A stretch of DNA of 32,000 nucleotides from Promethearchaeota archaeon. GTDB lineage: Archaea; Asgardarchaeota; Hermodarchaeia; Hermodarchaeales; Hermodarchaeaceae. The translations under genes and the position numbers were made by a program. Below are positions 2,479 to 24,157 of the stretch, in pieces. Numbering within the stretch: position 1 is the stretch's first letter; each line of letters opens with the position of its first letter. The notes under the pieces were generated by a model. The model worked only from the letters and a program-made list of their open reading frames with translations. It did not search any database and was not told the origin of the DNA. Where the stretch lies: positions 1,714-33,713 of the forward strand of contig JBHLPH010000010.1 in the NCBI GenBank assembly GCA_048939625.1, in the 5' to 3' direction.

Positions 2479-4338
2479 ATGGGAAGACAACACCTACGTC
2501 ACTTCCACCTTACTGATTTCCACACACGCGACATATATGTTCAACTTGACCCAGATTTTGGCAAAAGCTTCTTTTCAAAAATACTTGATCAAATCTCCTT
2601 GAAAACTCTCGCTGAGGAACTCGACTCCAAAATCGACCTTTTAGCTCGATACGCTGTGAACTATCGTGAGGATTTAGTGAATCCCGTTTTCATCGAACTT
2701 GGCGTTTTATTGAAGCTTATTAGTACCCACAAGAAATTTCATAGGAATTCAGATATTCTTTCAGATGTGGAAAGAAATGTTCGCGCAATTAAAGGGTACG
2801 GAAGGTCAGGGCTGCTACGAAATCCACGAATACCAATTAAAGAAGATAACCATCTTGTTCGATTGGTGGTTCATCTAATAGGAGACGGCACCTTAACAGA
2901 GGAATATGGAACAACTAAGACTCCACACTACACAAATGGAAATGCAGTGTTACTTAATCAGTTTCATAGCACTTTGGGACAGGTATTTGGAGATGTTACT
3001 TGTTGTACTCGGAAATATATTGACAGACATGGAAAATCCCGTTCATATGTTGCTTTCACAAAATGGCTCGGTTATCTTCTCCGCCATTGGTATCCAGACG
3101 CAGGATTTGATGAACTACATGGTTCTCTTCCCAGTGCATTTCTACAACTTCCTTTAGAACTAAAGCGCGAAATTGTTCAGACGTTTGGGGATGATGATGG
3201 GCATGTGGGAGCACATTCTATTCGGTTTACGTCGGGGGGTTCAACGATTCTTGAGCAGATTCGTAGTTTAATTGTGGAGTTGATGGTGGCGACGTTACCT
3301 GTGGAGGAGTTTCAGGTTCTGTTGAAGTCCGTGGGTGAGGTGAAGGCGTGTCGGAGTTGGTTTATTTTGGACGTGTATCGACCGGTGTTTGGGTGGTATG
3401 TGGAGCATATTGGGTTCTCGCATCCGGAGCGGGCTGAGAGGTTGCGGTTTCAGTTAGCTTGTGATAGCGCGTGGGTGGAACGGGGGTTGGATGGGTTTGA
3501 TTTGGATTTTCTCACCTTGATTGGGTTGCGAGAGGTTGGGTCGGTGGCGGATGTAGCGCGGCGTTTTGTGTTGCGTGAGGATTTTCTGTTTCGGGTGGTT
3601 GAGCGGTTGCGGCAGTTGGGGTGGATTCGGCGGATGACAAAGCAGAAGTTTACAACGGTGTATCAGACGACATCAAAAGGCGAGGATTTCTTAAGGCGGA
3701 TTTGGGCTCGTGGGTGGTGTGAGCCAGATCGGGTCGTGATGGATGATGCGTGGTGGTCTGAGTTGCGGGGGCAGTTGTTGGATGAGTATGGCACCGCTGC
3801 AGCAGTGGCGCGGGTGGCGGGGATGCCGGAGACGACGGTGCGGCTGTATTTGCAGGGGCGGCGGCAGTGGATGGATGCGCGATGGGTAGTGGCGTTAGCG
3901 AAGGCGGTGGGGTGGGGGGTGGATGCGGTGTCGAAGGGACTTGTCGTGGGGTTTACACGGAAGTTGGCCCCGCGGTATGAGCAATGTGATTTCTTGAAAA
4001 AGCAATTGGAAGTGTATCGGCAGTTAAGCGATGGACGCCTTGGGTTTGAGGGTTGGCTGTTGAGTCATCGACGAGATGGAGGGCGATCGGAGCAGCTGTT
4101 AGATGTGGGACATTCGGTGAAGCTGCAAACGGCGTCGGCGATCAGAAATCGAATCGTTGAATTGGCTAGAGTGAATGGGGGAACGATTGCTTTGGAAGCG
4201 TTGAAGGGTGATGCCGTGTTGCAGGAGTTAGTTGCGAATCGGTATGCGGCGTATTTGGCGGATCGGATGGCGAAGCTGATTAAGCAGGGGGTGTTTGTGC
4301 GTGTGCAGAAGGGACGGTATCAGTTGGTTGAGTTCTGA
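2479..4338 (+). CDS. Free-standing double-motif LAGLIDADG homing-endonuclease-like protein fused to multiple HTH/winged-helix modules
   Basis: 619-aa ORF. Motif 1 is LVRLVVHLIGDGTL (aa 126-139, nt 2854-2895). Motif 2 is IVQTFGDDDGHV (aa 232-243, nt 3172-3207). They lie ~100 aa apart, as in monomeric LAGLIDADG enzymes, and the acidic residues are retained. The C-terminal 370 aa contain HTH-like segments (VADVARRFVLREDFLFRVVERLRQLGWIRR; AAAVARVAGMPETTVRLYLQGRR; RNRIVELARVNGGTIALEAL...LIKQGVFVRVQKGRYQL). A long ORF on a G/T-rich strand is unlikely by chance, because stop codons are frequent in that composition. Confidence 0.7.
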   Translation: MGRQHLRHFHLTDFHTRDIYVQLDPDFGKSFFSKILDQISLKTLAEELDSKIDLLARYAVNYREDLVNPVFIELGVLLKLISTHKKFHRNSDILSDVERNVRAIKGYGRSGLLRNPRIPIKEDNHLVRLVVHLIGDGTLTEEYGTTKTPHYTNGNAVLLNQFHSTLGQVFGDVTCCTRKYIDRHGKSRSYVAFTKWLGYLLRHWYPDAGFDELHGSLPSAFLQLPLELKREIVQTFGDDDGHVGAHSIRFTSGGSTILEQIRSLIVELMVATLPVEEFQVLLKSVGEVKACRSWFILDVYRPVFGWYVEHIGFSHPERAERLRFQLACDSAWVERGLDGFDLDFLTLIGLREVGSVADVARRFVLREDFLFRVVERLRQLGWIRRMTKQKFTTVYQTTSKGEDFLRRIWARGWCEPDRVVMDDAWWSELRGQLLDEYGTAAAVARVAGMPETTVRLYLQGRRQWMDARWVVALAKAVGWGVDAVSKGLVVGFTRKLAPRYEQCDFLKKQLEVYRQLSDGRLGFEGWLLSHRRDGGRSEQLLDVGHSVKLQTASAIRNRIVELARVNGGTIALEALKGDAVLQELVANRYAAYLADRMAKLIKQGVFVRVQKGRYQLVEF

Positions 4339-4379: not shown

Positions 4380-6371
4380 TTATGCTTTGAAGGTTGGGGT
4401 AGGTGAGGTTTCGTTGAACAGGATTTCACCAAGGGGGGTGAAGTCGGTGAGGTTGTGGAAGCGGAGTGTGGAGGGGGAGAGGGTATAGAGGACTTCGTTG
4501 ATGTAAAGGGAACGGGTGATGAAGTGTGATTGCCATTTGTAAATGTCATCGTGGAGGACGTCGGGATCGGCGAGGTGGGTAATTTGATGTCGGATGGTAA
4601 GGGTGGCGGTTGCGGGGTTGAGGTAGAAGATGTAGGCGCCTTGCCAGACGTAGTCGCCATGTTCAAAGGGTTCGTGGGTGTAGTTGTCGGTGTATTCTGC
4701 GAGTAGAACGGGAATGATGAGGAGCTGTTGGTCGGGATGGTAGAGGACAGCGTGATGGTCGTTGAGGGCGGGGGAGTCAGTGCCTCGTACGCCAAGAATT
4801 AACTTTGCATTTTCTTTGGGGGTGTAGGGGTCGGTGGCATTGAATAGGCTGAGTTTGAGTCCCTCATACCACCACCAGTCTTCTGCTTCAGAAACCTGGA
4901 CCTCTTTTCCGATGCCTACTAACTGGTTGTCACCCAGTGGGTGGAGGTAATTCGAGTAACCGGGAATTATCAATTCTCCTTGAAGGTGGGGTGTAGTGGG
5001 ATCAGAAAGATCAATGATAAAGAGGGGATCGGTTTTCCAGAAGGTCACTAGATAACATACGCTTTCTAGGAATCGAACAGAGTAGATGCTTTCGCCAGGG
5101 GCTAAGCCTTCGAGAAGCCCAACGGTGTCGAGTTGTGCGTTTAGAATATAGAGATTGCTATCTTGTGTCCAGGAGGTTACAAATAACATTGGTGTCGACG
5201 TGAAGTTGGCGATTCGCCGTGTTGTAGCTACGCGTAGATAGCCCTCATGTTCATCGAGGGCGAATTGGTTAATTAGTAAGCCTGGAACTTTTCCACTGGC
5301 TTCATATAATACCTGACCTTCACAGATCGCAAAGCGATGTATGGCTGTTGAATGGTGAGATATGGCGTTAGTACTGAAGTCGAAATGCGATATAGCAAGG
5401 TAGAGATTGACAAGTGATGCGTAGATCGTACAGGTGCCCGTTCCGCCCAGGAAGGTTTCACTGGTGGGAGGATTATCCGGATTGCTGATATCTTGGGCTA
5501 GAATATGATAGTAGCAGAATCTGTAATCATACGTGTACAGATCATAATAGATGGTTTCAGCTGGGATGATGTGTGTGGAGTTTCCTATTGTTATTGATGG
5601 TAGCTCGACGGTTCCATTCTCCTCGCTTATCCAGTCTTGGACGATGAGGTATAGATATTTGCCAATTAGGCGGGCACTGACATAGTAATTCTCAAGGTCG
5701 ATTCGTTGAAGTAAGGTAATGGATGAAGGTTGAGATACATCATAAACTTGAAGTGAAATTGTGTCGGGGCTCCATGGGTCTCCGTGGTGCGTGACTCGGC
5801 TAATCACGGCTAGCCTGGATGTATCCCATAAGAATAACGCAAGCGGTGTTCCCTCAGGGTAAATCCAATTGACTATGTTCGCCATAGCCACAGGGTATGC
5901 TTTAACAACTGCAACCTTCTCTTCAGTAATGGTGTAAATGTAAGTTCCGTCGGTTTTGACAATGTCGGGCTCATCAACGCCTTCAACTTGAACATTGGTG
6001 GTCGAATACCCTGATGTCCCCTGCAATCCACTAGGAGTATCTCCGGACGTAAACAAGTTGATATCTTCCAGCCACAATCCCCATCCATAGCCTTGCGGTG
6101 GGTGATGATTTTGCACATACAATGCCAATTCCGCTTGTGATCGAAAACGCTGTAGTTGAACGGGGGAATTAAGTTGAAAATCCAAATAAAGGCCTGCTAT
6201 GGCGAACCCACCGATGATCGTTGATAATAAAAGCACGACTTTTACTGGTTGGCTTCGGACTTGTCTTAACCAATTACTCCCAAATCGGGTCCTTATGTGA
6301 GGCATATACTTACCTCTTACCCTCTGGGTCATTAATCTAAACTTTAGAACAGGAAAATCCATTGTGTTCAA
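4380..6371 (-). CDS. N-terminally membrane-anchored beta-propeller domain protein (COG4880 / Beta_propel-like)
   Basis: 663-aa ORF with one TM helix (VKVVLLLSTIIGGFAIAGLYL). The hallmark stretch YSTTNVQVEGVDEPDIVKTDGTYIYTI resembles the family of secreted archaeal/bacterial beta-propeller proteins as I remember it. The start codon is uncertain (Met at codons 1, 4, 14 and 23). Confidence 0.6.
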   Translation of the reverse strand: MNTMDFPVLKFRLMTQRVRGKYMPHIRTRFGSNWLRQVRSQPVKVVLLLSTIIGGFAIAGLYLDFQLNSPVQLQRFRSQAELALYVQNHHPPQGYGWGLWLEDINLFTSGDTPSGLQGTSGYSTTNVQVEGVDEPDIVKTDGTYIYTITEEKVAVVKAYPVAMANIVNWIYPEGTPLALFLWDTSRLAVISRVTHHGDPWSPDTISLQVYDVSQPSSITLLQRIDLENYYVSARLIGKYLYLIVQDWISEENGTVELPSITIGNSTHIIPAETIYYDLYTYDYRFCYYHILAQDISNPDNPPTSETFLGGTGTCTIYASLVNLYLAISHFDFSTNAISHHSTAIHRFAICEGQVLYEASGKVPGLLINQFALDEHEGYLRVATTRRIANFTSTPMLFVTSWTQDSNLYILNAQLDTVGLLEGLAPGESIYSVRFLESVCYLVTFWKTDPLFIIDLSDPTTPHLQGELIIPGYSNYLHPLGDNQLVGIGKEVQVSEAEDWWWYEGLKLSLFNATDPYTPKENAKLILGVRGTDSPALNDHHAVLYHPDQQLLIIPVLLAEYTDNYTHEPFEHGDYVWQGAYIFYLNPATATLTIRHQITHLADPDVLHDDIYKWQSHFITRSLYINEVLYTLSPSTLRFHNLTDFTPLGEILFNETSPTPTFKA

Positions 6372-7608: not shown

Positions 7609-8787
7609 ATGCCAGCTGAAGATCATTTTATCAATCGTGGATTGCTCAAAGTCAAAGTAAATGACTTTTTACGCCAGGAACTTCGCCGTGCCGGCTATGC
7701 TGGCGTAGATCTCCAAAAGACTCCACTGGGGATGCGCGTTGTTGTCTATGCATCACGCCCAGGAATGGTCATTGGCCGTCGTGGAACCACAGTCCGTGAA
7801 CTAACGGAAACCTTAGAGCACGAATTTGGCTTAGAAGCTCCACAGATTGAAGTTAGCGAAGTGGAAGTCCCCGAACTCAACGGACCCATCATGGCTGAAC
7901 GATTAGCCCAGCGACTTGAACGCGGTGACCATTTCCGTCGTGCTGCCTATGGGGTGCTTCGCCGCATCATCAGTGCTGGAGCGAAAGGCGTGGAAATCTC
8001 CCTTTCTGGGAAACTGACCAGCCGCCGTGCACGATATCAAAAATTCCGAAGTGGATTCGTAGCCAAAACTGGTGAACCAATCCGCACTGCTGTGAGTCAC
8101 GGTTGGGCTTTTGCGATTATGAAACCTGGTGTCTTGGGGGTACAAGTTCGAATTATGCTCCCCGACGCCGTAGCACCGGATCACCCTGTCATTGTAGAGC
8201 GAGAGGTAGTAGTTGAAGCTGTTCCAACGCCTACTCCAACAACCACAGAACCCTCTGAAACCCCTGAAGCTGCGGATATTGAAATTATTGAAGAAGAGCT
8301 ACCTATCGAGGAAGCTTCATCAATAGAAGAGTTTGTTGACGAAAGCACTGAACCAGTCCCCGAACCAACTCCTGCACCTACTCCAGAATCAGTTCCGAAA
8401 GAAGTTCCTTCCGAAGAGGAAAAACCTGCTCCTGAAGAACCGAAGGCGAAGCCCAAGGCCAAATCCAAAGAGGAACCTGAAAAAGCCCCAGAGAAACCGA
8501 AGGCGAAGCCCAAGGCAAAGAAGAAAGAAGTAGAAAAAGCGAAGCCGAAGGCGAAGAAGGAAAAAGCCGAGACGAAGCCTAAGGCGAAACCGAAGGCGAA
8601 GAAAAAGGCTGAACCCAAAGAAAAGGCAAAGAAAGAGAAAAAAGCCGAATCTAAGGCAGCCAAGAAAGAAGAAAAACCAAAAGCGAAAGCCATGACCAGC
8701 AAAGCTGCTGAGAAGGAAAAGAAGTCGAAATCCAAGGAAACCAAAGCAAAGGCTTCAAAATCCAAGAAGGAGTCTTCGAAGAAGTGA
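7609..8787 (+). CDS. rps3: 30S ribosomal protein uS3 with a ~190-aa C-terminal acidic-then-lysine-rich low-complexity extension
   Basis: The KH-domain core is aa 1-195 (GMRVVVYASRPGMVIGRRGTTVRELTE...). From about nt 8206 the tail runs PTPTPTTTEPSE...EEELPIEE..., then KPKAKPKAK repeats. GGAGGAG lies upstream of the ATG. Confidence 0.95.
   Translation: MPAEDHFINRGLLKVKVNDFLRQELRRAGYAGVDLQKTPLGMRVVVYASRPGMVIGRRGTTVRELTETLEHEFGLEAPQIEVSEVEVPELNGPIMAERLAQRLERGDHFRRAAYGVLRRIISAGAKGVEISLSGKLTSRRARYQKFRSGFVAKTGEPIRTAVSHGWAFAIMKPGVLGVQVRIMLPDAVAPDHPVIVEREVVVEAVPTPTPTTTEPSETPEAADIEIIEEELPIEEASSIEEFVDESTEPVPEPTPAPTPESVPKEVPSEEEKPAPEEPKAKPKAKSKEEPEKAPEKPKAKPKAKKKEVEKAKPKAKKEKAETKPKAKPKAKKKAEPKEKAKKEKKAESKAAKKEEKPKAKAMTSKAAEKEKKSKSKETKAKASKSKKESSKK
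8438..8516 (+). repeat. Perfect 22-nt direct repeat (aaccgaaggcgaagcccaaggc) at 8438-8459 and 8495-8516, with a 57-nt period, inside the uS3 tail
   Basis: Read directly from the sequence. It encodes the recurring EPKAKPKAK / KPKAKPKAK unit, and a degenerate third copy lies near 8569-8607. Confidence 0.9.
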
Positions 8788-20865: not shown

Positions 20866-20899
20866 CACACCGCTCCCTGTACGGGAGTTGAGGAGGACA

Positions 20900-21046
20900 T
20901 TGGATCTGACAAAATCGCGGCTGCCTGCAGATAAGAAACGGAAATTAGTAACGCGAGCTGAAGACACCACAAACCCTACTTATGGTCGGATTCCTGCGAA
21001 GCGAACTATCCTGGAATTATTCCAGGATGGCATCATTAACCTGGAT
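20900..21046 (+). CDS. cbf5: tRNA/rRNA pseudouridine synthase Cbf5, exon 1 (49 codons)
   Basis: TTG 20900 follows GGAGG at 20892-20896. The translation is (M)DLTKSRLPADKKRKLVTRAEDTTNPTYGRIPAKRTILELFQDGIINLD, which is colinear with Cbf5 N-termini as I remember them (..ILPADIKREVLIK..ETNP.WG..P.KR.I......GVINLDKPPGPTSHEVV). If read through, this frame hits TAA at 21056-21058. Confidence 0.85.
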
Positions 21047-21086
21047 AGCTTGGCTTAAGGGGTTTCAACCCTTTCCAAACCCAGAA
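21047..21086 (+). other. Predicted 40-nt bulge-helix-loop (relaxed BHB) intron in the cbf5 mRNA
   Basis: The central 4-bp helix is c21041-g21084, u42-a83, g43-c82, g44-c81. The 5' 3-nt bulge is a45 u46 a47. The inner helix is g48:c80, u50:a78, u51:a77, g52:c76, g53:c75, with a c49/a79 mismatch. The apical stem is a57-g61 : c69-u73 with a 7-nt loop. The 3' site lies in the aaa at 21085-87. Cleavage after the 2nd bulge nucleotide gives 21046|21047 and 21086|21087. That removes 40 nt (a +1 frame change) and joins ...INLD to KPPGPTSHEVV. I found no outer helix, so the motif is relaxed. Confidence 0.7.
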
Positions 21087-21959
21087 AAACCACCAGGACC
21101 GACCAGTCACGAAGTAGTGTCTTGGATCAAACGCATTCTAGCCATATCTCGTGCAGGCCATTCGGGAACATTGGATCCCCAAGTCACAGGTGTACTCCCA
21201 GTTATGTTAGGGAATGCCACAAAAATTGCCAATGCCCTGCTAACGTCAGGTAAAGAATACATTTGCATAATGCGCCTTCATCGGCAAGAAGAACCTCAGA
21301 AGGTTCGGGAAGCTGCCACAGAATTCGTTGGGACAATTTATCAACGTCCGCCTGTCCGTTCTTCAGTAAAGCGACGTGTACGCACACGTCACATCTATTA
21401 TCTGGATATCCTTGAAATCGAGGACCAAAACGTACTCTTTCGTGTTGGATGCCAAGCTGGCACCTATATTCGGAAACTCGTTTATGATCTTGGTGAAGTT
21501 CTCGGCAGTGGAGCCCATATGGCTGAACTCCGACGAACACGCACGGGACCATTCAAAGAAGACAATACGTTAGCAACCTTGTATGATGTTAAGGATGCCT
21601 ATCAGTTTTGGCACGAAGACAAGGATGATCGGCTACTCCGGCAATATCTACAACCTCTCGAAAATGGCGTCCAACATCTACCCCAAATTATAATTCGAGA
21701 CACAGCAGTGGATGCCATATGTCACGGTGCGAACCTAGCGGTTACCGGAGTGTTACAGCTTCATGACGATATCGAACCAGGTGATTACGTTGCGCTGATG
21801 ACCTTGAAGGGTGAGTTGGTCGCCCTCGGAATTGCTCAACAAAAGAGTCAGCAAATATTACAAGCTTCATCAGGGATTGTAGCAGATACCAAGCGGGTTG
21901 TGTTAGCAGCAGGAACCTATCCATCCAGTTGGCGAAAAAAAACTAAAGACACTGGCTAA
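21087..21959 (+). CDS. cbf5: Pseudouridine synthase Cbf5, exon 2 (TruB catalytic domain plus PUA domain)
   Basis: KPPGPTSHEVVSWIKRIL..AGHSGTLDPQVTGVLPV...YQRPPVRSSVKRRVRTR...GTYIRKL...GAHMAELRRTRTGPF... followed by a C-terminal PUA-like region. The spliced product is 339 aa. Confidence 0.92.
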   Translation, partial: KPPGPTSHEVVSWIKRILAISRAGHSGTLDPQVTGVLPVMLGNATKIANALLTSGKEYICIMRLHRQEEPQKVREAATEFVGTIYQRPPVRSSVKRRVRTRHIYYLDILEIEDQNVLFRVGCQAGTYIRKLVYDLGEVLGSGAHMAELRRTRTGPFKEDNTLATLYDVKDAYQFWHEDKDDRLLRQYLQPLENGVQHLPQIIIRDTAVDAICHGANLAVTGVLQLHDDIEPGDYVALMTLKGELVALGIAQQKSQQILQASSGIVADTKRVVLAAGTYPSSWRKKTKDTG

Positions 21960-21984: not shown

Positions 21985-22100
21985 TGGCGCCGCGGACGAG
22001 ATTCGAACTCGTGCGACCCGAGAGTCACAGGCTATATGAGCATCGCCAAATTAGTGACGAGATTCCAGGCCTGCGCCGTAAACCACTTGGCTACCGCGGC
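21985..22100 (-). tRNA. tRNA-Ser (anticodon GGA), class II with a long variable arm, an encoded CCA and a 29-nt anticodon-loop intron
   Basis: The minus-strand read is GCCGCGG-TA-GCCA-AGTGGTTTA-CGGC-G-CAGGC-CTGGAA[29 nt]A-GCCTG-TGACTCTCGGGTCGC-ACGAG-TTCGAAT-CTCGT-CCGCGGC-G-CCA. It has a 7-bp acceptor stem, a canonical T arm, discriminator G73, a 15-nt variable arm (GACT/GGTC stem), and the anticodon at 22064-22066. The mature length is 87 nt. Confidence 0.85.
22034..22062 (-). other. Intron of tRNA-Ser(GGA), with boundaries assuming the canonical 37/38 position
   Basis: 36 nt lie between the anticodon-stem strands where 7 are expected. Excising TCTCGTCACTAATTTGGCGATGCTCATAT leaves the loop CUGGAAA. 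The exact boundaries are not confirmed because I could not fold a strict BHB. Confidence 0.5.
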
Positions 22101-22730: not shown

Positions 22731-23459
22731 ATGGGCGGAATACGCAAACCAAAGAAGAAATACGTTGCACCCGGACATCCCTGGCAGAAGACTCGGTTAG
22801 CCGAAGAACTAATTTATGTAGGTGAATATGGTCTCCGCAATAAACGGGAGCTCTGGAAACACCGAACCCAGCTGACCCATTTCCGTGGCACAGCCCGTGA
22901 TCTTGTGGCCCTTTCCATGGAAGAAAGGGACGTTCGTGAAACTCAACTTCTAAACCGATTGGCTCGACTAGCTCTTATTGATGAGAATTCCCAATTGGAT
23001 GATGTTCTCAATCTGACGATTCGTGACGTCTTAGAACGCCGATTGCAGACGCAGGTGCTACGTCAGGGCTTGGCAAAGACAATGCACCATGCAAGGCAGT
23101 TAATCGTTCACGGTCATATCATACTTGATCAACATCGTGTTACTTCTCCCGGTATGCTCCTTTATCGTGATCAAGAAAAAGCGCTCAAATATGCTACAAA
23201 AAGTCCCTACACTAATCCTCTGCATCCAGAAATTCCAAAAGGCGAAACAGTTGCTCCAGCTCCTGAAGTCCGGGAACCAGTTTCGAAAGAAAAAATTGAA
23301 GTAAAAATCCCTCAAGTCCGTGAAATCAAAGAAGTTGAACTTGAAGAAGAGGTCGACTTAGACGAAGACCTTGCTGAAGAGGAAAACGTTCAGGAAGAAA
23401 CTGAAAAACCGCCTGCAAAGGACCAGAAAGGTGCAGCCAAAGAAAAAGAAACAAAATAA
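22731..23459 (+). CDS. rps4: 30S ribosomal protein uS4 with a ~70-aa acidic / Lys-Glu C-terminal extension
   Basis: MGGIRKPKKKYVAPGHPWQKTRLAEELIYVGEYGLRNKRELWK... with an S4 domain (ARQLIVHGHIILDQHRVTSPG). The tail starts at about nt 23247: APAPEVREPVSKEKIEVKIPQVREIKEVELEEEVDLDEDLAEEENVQEETEKPPAKDQKGAAKEKETK. Confidence 0.93.
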   Translation: MGGIRKPKKKYVAPGHPWQKTRLAEELIYVGEYGLRNKRELWKHRTQLTHFRGTARDLVALSMEERDVRETQLLNRLARLALIDENSQLDDVLNLTIRDVLERRLQTQVLRQGLAKTMHHARQLIVHGHIILDQHRVTSPGMLLYRDQEKALKYATKSPYTNPLHPEIPKGETVAPAPEVREPVSKEKIEVKIPQVREIKEVELEEEVDLDEDLAEEENVQEETEKPPAKDQKGAAKEKETK

Positions 23460-23488: not shown

Positions 23489-24157
23489 ATGGCAAAAGAC
23501 GAGGAAAAGAAACCGGAACCGGAAAAAGCCCCTGAAGAAAAACCTAAGAAAACTCCCAAAGCGAAAGAAGCACCTAAGAAAAAAGCAGAAACCAAAGAGG
23601 CACCCGCTGAACCCACTACAGCAGAGGAACCTTCTAAAGAGAAAAAGCCCGTCAAAGCGAAGAAAAAAGCCAAACCCGAAGCGGAAGAGGAAGAAAAGAA
23701 ACCAACTCGTCGCACTCGAACCCGTTCACCACGTTCAGGTGGGCGCGCTCGCACCCCCACCCCTGTTGATAGTAAGGAAAAATGGGGCGTGGCTCATATT
23801 TACAGTTCCTACAACGATACAATTGTTCATATCACCGATATTACGGGTGCAGAAACGATTGCCCGTGCTTCCGGTGGCATGATAGTCCGCGCGGATCGAG
23901 ACGAAAGTTCTCCCTATGCAGCAATGCAAGCCGCTTTTCGTGCCGCTCGCGCAGCTATGGACAAAGATGTCACTCGAGTCAATATTAAGGTCCGAGCTCC
24001 CGGTGGGCATGGTCCCAAAACTCCTGGGCCTGGGGCTCAAGCAGCCATCCGCGCACTAGCACGTGCTGGTCTTCGAATAGGTCGAATTGAAGAAGTAACC
24101 CCCGTACCTCATGACGGAACACGCCGTCCTGGAGGTCGGAGAGGTCGCAGAGTATAA
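23489..24157 (+). CDS. rps11: 30S ribosomal protein uS11 with a ~95-aa Lys/Glu/Pro/Ala-rich N-terminal extension
   Basis: The core is [34 protein letters not shown]... The extension is [39 protein letters not shown]...[21 protein letters not shown] (nt 23489-23773). AAAGGTGATG lies upstream of the ATG. Confidence 0.92.

Follow-up and report, generated by a model that had tools for sequence, protein, structure and literature searches.

Endonuclease-dependent introns in the protein-coding sequences of archaea are extremely rare. One of them lies in the cbf5 pre-mRNA of Crenarchaeota and, besides the survey cited next, is reportedly also described in Watanabe et al. 2002 and Yoshinari et al. 2006. 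This intron is known from Aeropyrum pernix, Sulfolobus spp. and the Desulfurococcales and Sulfolobales, spans 16–44 base pairs (bp), and is built around an unconventional motif that obeys the same cut rule as the motif described below, with support cited from complementary DNA and in vitro work (PMC2738675 = Yokobori et al. 2009). Reviews from 2020 and 2023 list only this crenarchaeal intron and one Haloferax case in a 5′ untranslated region (UTR), and literature searches, which did not extend to subscription-only papers, turned up no report of a cbf5 or bulge-helix-bulge (BHB) intron in Asgard archaea or Hermodarchaeota. Here we describe a cbf5 homologue in a 32,000-nucleotide stretch of Asgard archaeal DNA (the whole stretch is referred to as the window), in which 40 nucleotides (nt) at positions 21047–21086 very probably constitute an archaeal endonuclease-type intron of the BHB family within the cbf5 pre-mRNA, as reading frames and comparison with relatives indicate. 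The geometry of this element is that of the relaxed HBh′ (bulge-helix-loop) subclass rather than of a strict BHB.

The cbf5 homologue occupies positions 20888–21959 of the plus strand and is split over two frames, as its open reading frames (ORFs) and their translation reveal. In frame 2, the sequence ...RTILELFQDGIINLD encodes ...ELFQDGIINLD and then runs through SLA into a stop codon, the TAA at 21056–21058, while frame 3 resumes at 21087 with KPPGPTSHEVVSWIKRIL..., encoding KPPGPTSHEVV, and continues to the stop codon at 21957–21959. The cbf5 frame is interrupted exactly at 21046↓21047 and 21086↓21087 (↓ marks an insertion or cut site), and deletion of the 40 intervening nucleotides yields a 343-residue Cbf5, bearing out the frame break and the frame-restoring excision that a first-pass annotation had proposed. 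Exon 1 (20888–21046, plus strand) carries the N-terminal part of the DKCLD domain, identified by ORF, translation and Pfam, and ends in ...GIINLD; its start codon is uncertain, being either the TTG at 20888 or the in-frame TTG at 20900, which follows a GAGGAGG stretch. Exon 2 (21087–21959, plus strand) opens with KPPGPTSHEVV and carries the TruB_N, TruB_C_2 and PUA domains up to the stop codon. Between them lies the putative intron AGCUUGGCUUAAGGGGUUUCAACCCUUUCCAAACCCAGAA (21047–21086, plus strand), whose limits follow from frame logic and are given separately by the bulge cut rule; relatives carry inserts at the same site.

Residues 8–340 of the predicted spliced protein align with Pyrococcus furiosus Cbf5 (2HVY_A) at E = 7e-119 with a gap-free junction, and alignment with other solved Cbf5 chains is likewise gap-free. 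Specifically, the junction stretch GIINLDKPPGPTSHEVV equals GVINLDKPPGPTSHEVV of P. furiosus Cbf5 except for an I/V difference, and the Pfam DKCLD match, which scores 35.4 bits when exon 1 is taken by itself, reaches 61.7 bits over the spliced junction. Public annotation treats the locus differently: the NCBI product for this metagenome-assembled genome (MAG; P0001, 310 residues, window positions 20982–21959) begins at an out-of-frame Met, and its first 20 residues, MASLTWIAWLKGFQPFPNPE, are non-Cbf5 sequence produced by translation of exon 1 in the wrong frame together with the intron. In some relatives, exon 1 is instead called as a separate DKCLD protein of 37–50 residues.

RNAfold was applied to positions 21025–21105 (81 nt). 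A central 4-bp helix, H, is formed between CUGG at 21041–21044, which lies in the Leu-Asp codons of exon 1, and CCAG at 21081–21084, which lies within the intron, both strands being supported by the minimum-free-energy (MFE) structure and by RNAalifold. Directly 3′ of the first strand, a 3-nt bulge, AUA (21045–21047), is unpaired in the MFE and consensus structures, with a predicted cut after its second nucleotide at 21046↓21047; directly 3′ of the second strand, AAA (21085–21087) takes the place of the second bulge, has no closing outer helix, and has its predicted cut at 21086↓21087. The conserved inner helix h′ extends over 5 bp between 21048–21052 (GCUUG) and 21076–21080 (CAAAC), as seen in the alignment and in RNAalifold with compensatory changes, and the window copy contains one C·A mismatch, 21049 with 21079. 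In this copy, RNAfold pairs G21048 and UUGG at 21050–21053 with CCAA at 21075–21078 and C21080. A distal hairpin, AAGGGGU UUCA ACCCUUU, caps the structure at 21057–21074 with its stems at 21057–21063 and 21068–21074, and is variable in sequence and length among relatives. The window copy displays the BHB core, namely a 4-bp helix with 3-nt single-stranded triplets 3′ of each strand and on opposite strands. This fold reproduces the helix, AUA bulge, inner helix and 3′ AAA of the first-pass annotation, and the predicted cut positions that it had derived from the tRNA rule restore the frame in the window, as the rule does in 14 of 14 relatives.

Comparison with relatives carries most of the argument. 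DNA was fetched for the clusters of truncated Cbf5 and for genome matches, drawing on independent NCBI, JGI, ENA and Logan assemblies. An insert is present at the identical codon boundary in 14 distinct sequences, with lengths of 38, 40, 41, 42 or 43 nt; the loci share the synteny EMC3-like, cmk, L14e, cbf5, S13, S4, and the relatives span 70–99% protein identity. Despite the range of 38–43 nt, cutting after the second bulge nucleotide produces NLD↓KPPGPTSHEV in every one of the 14. Helix H is paired at 4/4 positions in 14/14 copies, the 5′ triplet A[U/C]A and the 3′ triplet A[A/G]A are retained in 14/14, and h′ is paired at 4–5 of its 5 positions in 14/14. Helix H occurs as CUGG/CCAG, CUGG/CCGG and CUGG/CUAG, while CUAG/CUAG in L122 is a double change reached through G-U intermediates. 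Moreover, h′ changes from GCUUG/CAAGC to GCCCG/CGGGC (L118), GCGCG/CGCGC (L120) and GCUCG/CGAGC (L121), with compensatory changes in three of the five pairs. Whereas a strict hBHBh′ motif would have both bulges closed by helices, only the inner helix h′ is formed here, and it covaries.

The same structure emerges from analyses of the alignment as a whole. RNAalifold on the relatives independently recovers H, the bulge and h′. Across the nine core pairs of H and h′, 97.6% of cells are paired and both sides change in four of the nine; none of 500 shuffles matches the observed pairing or covariation score, and sliding the partners by one column lowers core pairing to 41–54%. In the distal hairpin, 92.5% of alignment cells are paired and three pairs change on both sides, bringing pairs with both-side changes to 7 of 15 for hairpin and core together. 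A covariance model built from the 14 copies (R1) finds no second copy in the window, where its next-best match, at 15 bits, falls within an intact ORF of 663 residues; in this stretch the intron is therefore no repeated mobile element. Against intron-less loci, R1 matches the exon flanks alone. A metagenome scan adds just two loci with the intron (L035 and L036), each the same as L002, and otherwise yields distant or eukaryotic sequences. Additionally, one locus, L049 (~1300–1312; 59% identical to the query), was considered as a second type of interruption, GVIN..KPSGPTSHE, in which 10 nt are deleted between GATAAAC direct repeats; this looks like slippage or an assembly frameshift, not an intron.

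The inserts resist translation, and both flanking exons retain the marks of coding sequence. Every insert either shifts the frame or contains in-frame stops, as do all four 42-nt copies, and the lengths cover all three phases; none of the 14 relatives can translate the insert in frame, whereas in-frame translation in relatives is what the first-pass annotation had named as fatal to its proposal. Upstream of KPPGP, no ATG, GTG or TTG occurs in the exon-2 frame in 10 of the 14. At the protein level K-P-[P/S]-G-P-T-S-H-E-V is invariant, with synonymous variation in the DNA, and differences in exon 1 among the 14 relatives fall on the three codon positions as 801/349/1955, a pattern indicating that exon 1 is under coding selection. 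Purifying selection is maintained on both exons. Since the inserts are untranslatable and both exons are coding, the exons are translated in register and the insert must be removed at the RNA level.

The distribution of the insert points to a restricted history. The closest proteins come from Asgard (Promethearchaeota) MAGs, the nearest named relative being the Hermodarchaeota MAG YT1_028. Among the 120 best protein clusters surveyed, 29, each with at least 70% identity to the query, lack DKCLD and cover ~72–85% of its length; these truncated clusters start at MSWVKRIL or similar, which indicates that gene callers began downstream of the interruption. Other Asgard groups, including sequences labelled Loki, Thor, Odin, Hel and Baldr as well as loci L008–L015, are intact at both this site and the crenarchaeal one. 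Cbf5 proteins, spliced or intact, were placed in a neighbour-joining tree, a crude method, with 200 bootstraps. The intron-bearing sequences group with the intron-less P0003, P0006, P0007 and P0013 as a single clade in 196 of the 200 replicates, and the intron-bearing sequences by themselves are monophyletic in 0 of 200. At the DNA level, the site in P0006 is cleanly empty, AAC AUC GAC↓AAG. This pattern suggests one gain followed by one precise secondary loss in a nested intron-less subgroup. The likeliest history is a single gain in a Hermodarchaeota-like Asgard clade, separate from the origin of the crenarchaeal cbf5 intron, with later loss in one subgroup.

A processing route can be outlined from these features. 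In the transcript, CUGG of exon 1 (21041–21044) would pair with CCAG of the intron (21081–21084) to form the 4-bp central helix. The 5′ splice site (AU↓A) would sit within a genuine bulge of 3 nt that the 5-bp inner helix closes, and the 3′ splice site (AA↓A) would immediately follow the central helix on its 3′ side, where an outer helix is missing. The tRNA-splicing endonuclease EndA would then be expected to cleave after the second nucleotide of each bulge, and an RtcB-type ligase may join ...CUGGAU to AAACCACCA..., giving NLD-KPPGPTSHEV and the 343-residue Cbf5, while the intron would probably be released as a small circle. The predicted spliced junction is GGCATCATTAACCTGGAT joined to AAACCACCAGGACCGACC, and the predicted junction of the circular intron is CCAAACCCAGAA joined to AGCTTGGCTTAAGG. 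The source genome would presumably encode a broad-specificity (alpha-beta)2 EndA. An (alpha-beta)2 EndA with an L1 loop for relaxed specificity is reported in four other Asgard genomes (PMC5829648).

Several observations weigh against the intron interpretation. Splicing of the cbf5 insert is itself inferred from sequence, and no EndA or RtcB gene lies within the 32-kilobase window. Public protein data, queried with the junction-spanning N-terminal 110 residues, contain no spliced product of the intron-bearing clade, the best match being 65% identical. All 14 copies lack the outer helix that a canonical BHB would have, with at most one possible pair beyond the 3′ triplet, which agrees with the relaxed, bulge-helix-loop type of motif anticipated by the first-pass annotation. 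The fold energy of the 81-nt stretch is ordinary relative to shuffles (z = 0.42), and the gain-and-loss scenario rests solely on the neighbour-joining tree. Moreover, the relaxed motif is common by chance: a scanner requiring a 4-bp helix, two 3-nt triplets and at least 4/5 inner-helix pairs returns 2,374 motifs on the plus strand of the window, compared with ~2,100 in shuffles, a rate of 8.6e-4 per start-and-length cell. Only two nucleotide-equivalent cut pairs restore the frame, and the chance that motif cuts coincide with them is ~2 × 8.6e-4 (~2e-3). The relaxed motif is thus too frequent to be informative by itself and, at ~2e-3, carries little weight when one sequence is considered alone; the comparative data are decisive.

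The alternative that retains the most plausibility, and is nevertheless improbable, is a split gene, in which a ~56-residue DKCLD peptide and a ~290-residue TruB/PUA protein assemble non-covalently and the insert is an intercistronic spacer. Two ORFs are indeed annotated in several relatives, with DKCLD products of 37–50 residues and proteins of 277–281 residues, and exon 1 reaches a stop a few codons into the insert. However, in 10 of the 14 relatives the stretch ahead of KPPGP has no start codon in frame with exon 2; the starts that have been called (MSWVKRIL...) drop KPPGPTSHEV, yet this motif is conserved with synonymous DNA changes. A spacer, moreover, needs no covarying helix between exon 1 and the insert that sets 3-nt bulges at frame-restoring positions.

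That same helix bears on translational recoding, which we regard as very improbable. Here the RNA would remain uncut, and ribosomes would either bypass the 38–43 nt in the manner of phage T4 gene 60 or shift frame. The resemblance to gene 60 is superficial, consisting of a stop codon soon after the take-off site and a stable hairpin in the gap. A simple frameshift is excluded by insert lengths that cover all three phases, and for a bypass the codons fail to match, take-off being at GAU or GAC (Asp) as against GAA or GAG before the Lys codon. The conserved features are instead those of an endonuclease motif, a 4-bp helix with two 3-nt single-stranded triplets in two-fold symmetry. It is scarcely credible, finally, that the 40 nt are junk inactivating cbf5, whether through pseudogene formation, an error of sequencing or an artefact of assembly. 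Such an explanation could point to the broken frame of a gene that is conserved in other respects, and the metagenome contig L049 has a plain 10-nt deletion at the same spot; against it, the insert recurs at an identical site in at least 14 independent assemblies, which answers the concern about an artefact raised in the first-pass annotation, both exons are under purifying selection, and the insert evolves under structural constraint. These comparative data effectively refute the pseudogene or artefact explanation.

Downstream of cbf5, an intron-bearing tRNA gene occupies 21988–22100 on the minus strand (Rfam tRNA match of 48 bits that leaves 31 nt of the anticodon loop unaligned). The first-pass annotation was right that such a gene lies nearby and wrong in placing it 25 nt from the insert, as the distance to the tRNA gene is 28 nt when measured from the stop codon of cbf5 and ~900 nt when measured from the insert. 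The tRNA gene encodes its CCA end, has an intron of ~29 nt in the anticodon loop and, given its long variable arm, is probably a tRNA-Ser(GGA) gene. ARAGORN reports no tRNA in the window or in the relatives, because such introns are outside its handling. In the fold of the anticodon arm the 5′ site lies in an internal loop rather than in a clean bulge, making this intron likewise relaxed and not a strict BHB. With an intron-bearing tRNA next door, the organism must splice endonuclease-type introns. The cbf5 intron and the neighbouring tRNA intron share no sequence similarity. Separately, a 6-nt CCUGGA is common to the cbf5 5′ splice context, C-CUGG-AU↓ (21040–21046), and the tRNA, C-CUGG-AA↓ (~22067–22073, minus strand), in the same register as an anticodon loop with a canonical 37/38 intron (C32 U33 N34 N35 N36 N37↓). 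This match could be a coincidence or a hint that the mRNA mimics a pre-tRNA.

The locus would extend a rare kind of protein-gene intron to a new lineage and a new position in its gene. As far as the searched literature shows, it would be the first candidate from Asgard archaea, the sister lineage of eukaryotes, as well as an independent second insertion site in cbf5 and a second example of intron gain followed by loss. The annotation consequences reach beyond this window, as gene callers ignore the intron and so leave ~29 of the 120 best-matching database clusters with a Cbf5 annotated as chimeric or as lacking its N terminus. Being compact, the intron could also serve as a substrate on which to test the specificity of Asgard EndA. 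Taken at face value, two independent invasions of cbf5 have occurred, one into the catalytic Asp codon (TACK lineages) and one at NLD↓KP (the Asgard clade), and each intron has long been kept under structural constraint. A speculative and rather doubtful extension is that this double invasion is non-coincidental, either as a selected regulatory gate tying the output of Cbf5, a pseudouridine synthase of rRNA and tRNA, to EndA/RtcB capacity, or because cbf5 mRNA is a preferred client of EndA. If true, the archaea most closely related to eukaryotes would have endonuclease-dependent mRNA splicing as a functional layer in the control of their genes.

Elsewhere in the window, several ribosomal proteins have unusual features. 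Ribosomal protein S4 (22731–23459) ends in a long, highly charged, low-complexity C-terminal tail that is acidic and then Lys-rich, S11 (23489–24157) carries an N-terminal extension of the same charged, low-complexity kind, ~90 residues in length and rich in Lys, Glu and Pro, and the S3 ORF (7609–8787, 392 residues) is unusually long. Two ORFs, 1937–2446 (169 residues) and 2479–4338 (619 residues), have no Pfam match at E <= 1e-5; both adjoin a beta-propeller protein (4380–6371, minus strand) just upstream of the ribosomal protein cluster.

Set beside the described systems, the Asgard insert most closely resembles the crenarchaeal cbf5 intron. Both reside in the same host gene, are tiny and lack an ORF (16–44 bp there, 38–43 nt here), adopt a relaxed BHB motif cut between the second and third bulge nucleotides, and show lineage-specific gain and secondary loss. 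Both also belong to lineages with a hetero-oligomeric, broad-specificity EndA, which for Asgard is reported in the literature from other genomes. They differ in position, in host and in sequence: in Thermoproteota the crenarchaeal insertion falls inside the codon of the catalytic Asp (GTL↓DPKV), whereas the window intron lies at NLD↓KPPGP, ~30 codons upstream, in an Asgard host, and the intron sequences are dissimilar. At the catalytic Asp site the window reads uninterrupted as GHSGTLDPQVTG, and the two insertions are not orthologous; nor does the host belong to the Desulfurococcales or Sulfolobales, its closest relatives being Promethearchaeota MAGs. Conversely, the GTL↓DPKV interruption is confirmed in L020, L024, L027, L030 and L033, loci labelled Sulfolobales, Desulfurococcaceae and Ignisphaera, and these same loci are intact at the D↓KP boundary (VVDKP, VIDKP or VLDKP). 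The different site, the different phylum and the lack of intron similarity together indicate an independent insertion into cbf5. Both possibilities raised by the first-pass annotation are thereby realized, an extended lineage range (Asgard) and a distinct insertion site, D↓K of NLDKPPGP. As a separate observation, an intron in the catalytic Asp codon also occurs in L025/L048 (labelled Bathyarchaeota B26-1, ~1745–1775) and in L022/L047 (Culexmicrobium thermophilum, ~3195–3225), both of which fall outside the Desulfurococcales/Sulfolobales range given in PMC2738675.

Two further systems share parts of this architecture, one in tRNA and one in mRNA. Non-canonical archaeal tRNA introns with relaxed HBh′ or hBH motifs are reportedly described by Marck & Grosjean 2003. 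Introns of this relaxed type are cleaved by (alpha-beta)2 or epsilon2 EndA equipped with a specificity loop (PMC5829648). The core geometry and cut positions are the same in the Asgard insert; the substrate here is instead an mRNA without a tRNA body, and recognition must therefore rest on the motif alone. The 5′-UTR BHB intron of HVO_1309 in Haloferax volcanii (PMC7714728) provides a parallel in which an mRNA is processed by EndA at a BHB motif. That intron lies in a 5′ UTR and combines a canonical BHB with an alpha2 enzyme, whereas the Asgard cbf5 intron interrupts coding sequence, so that its removal is obligatory for the protein.

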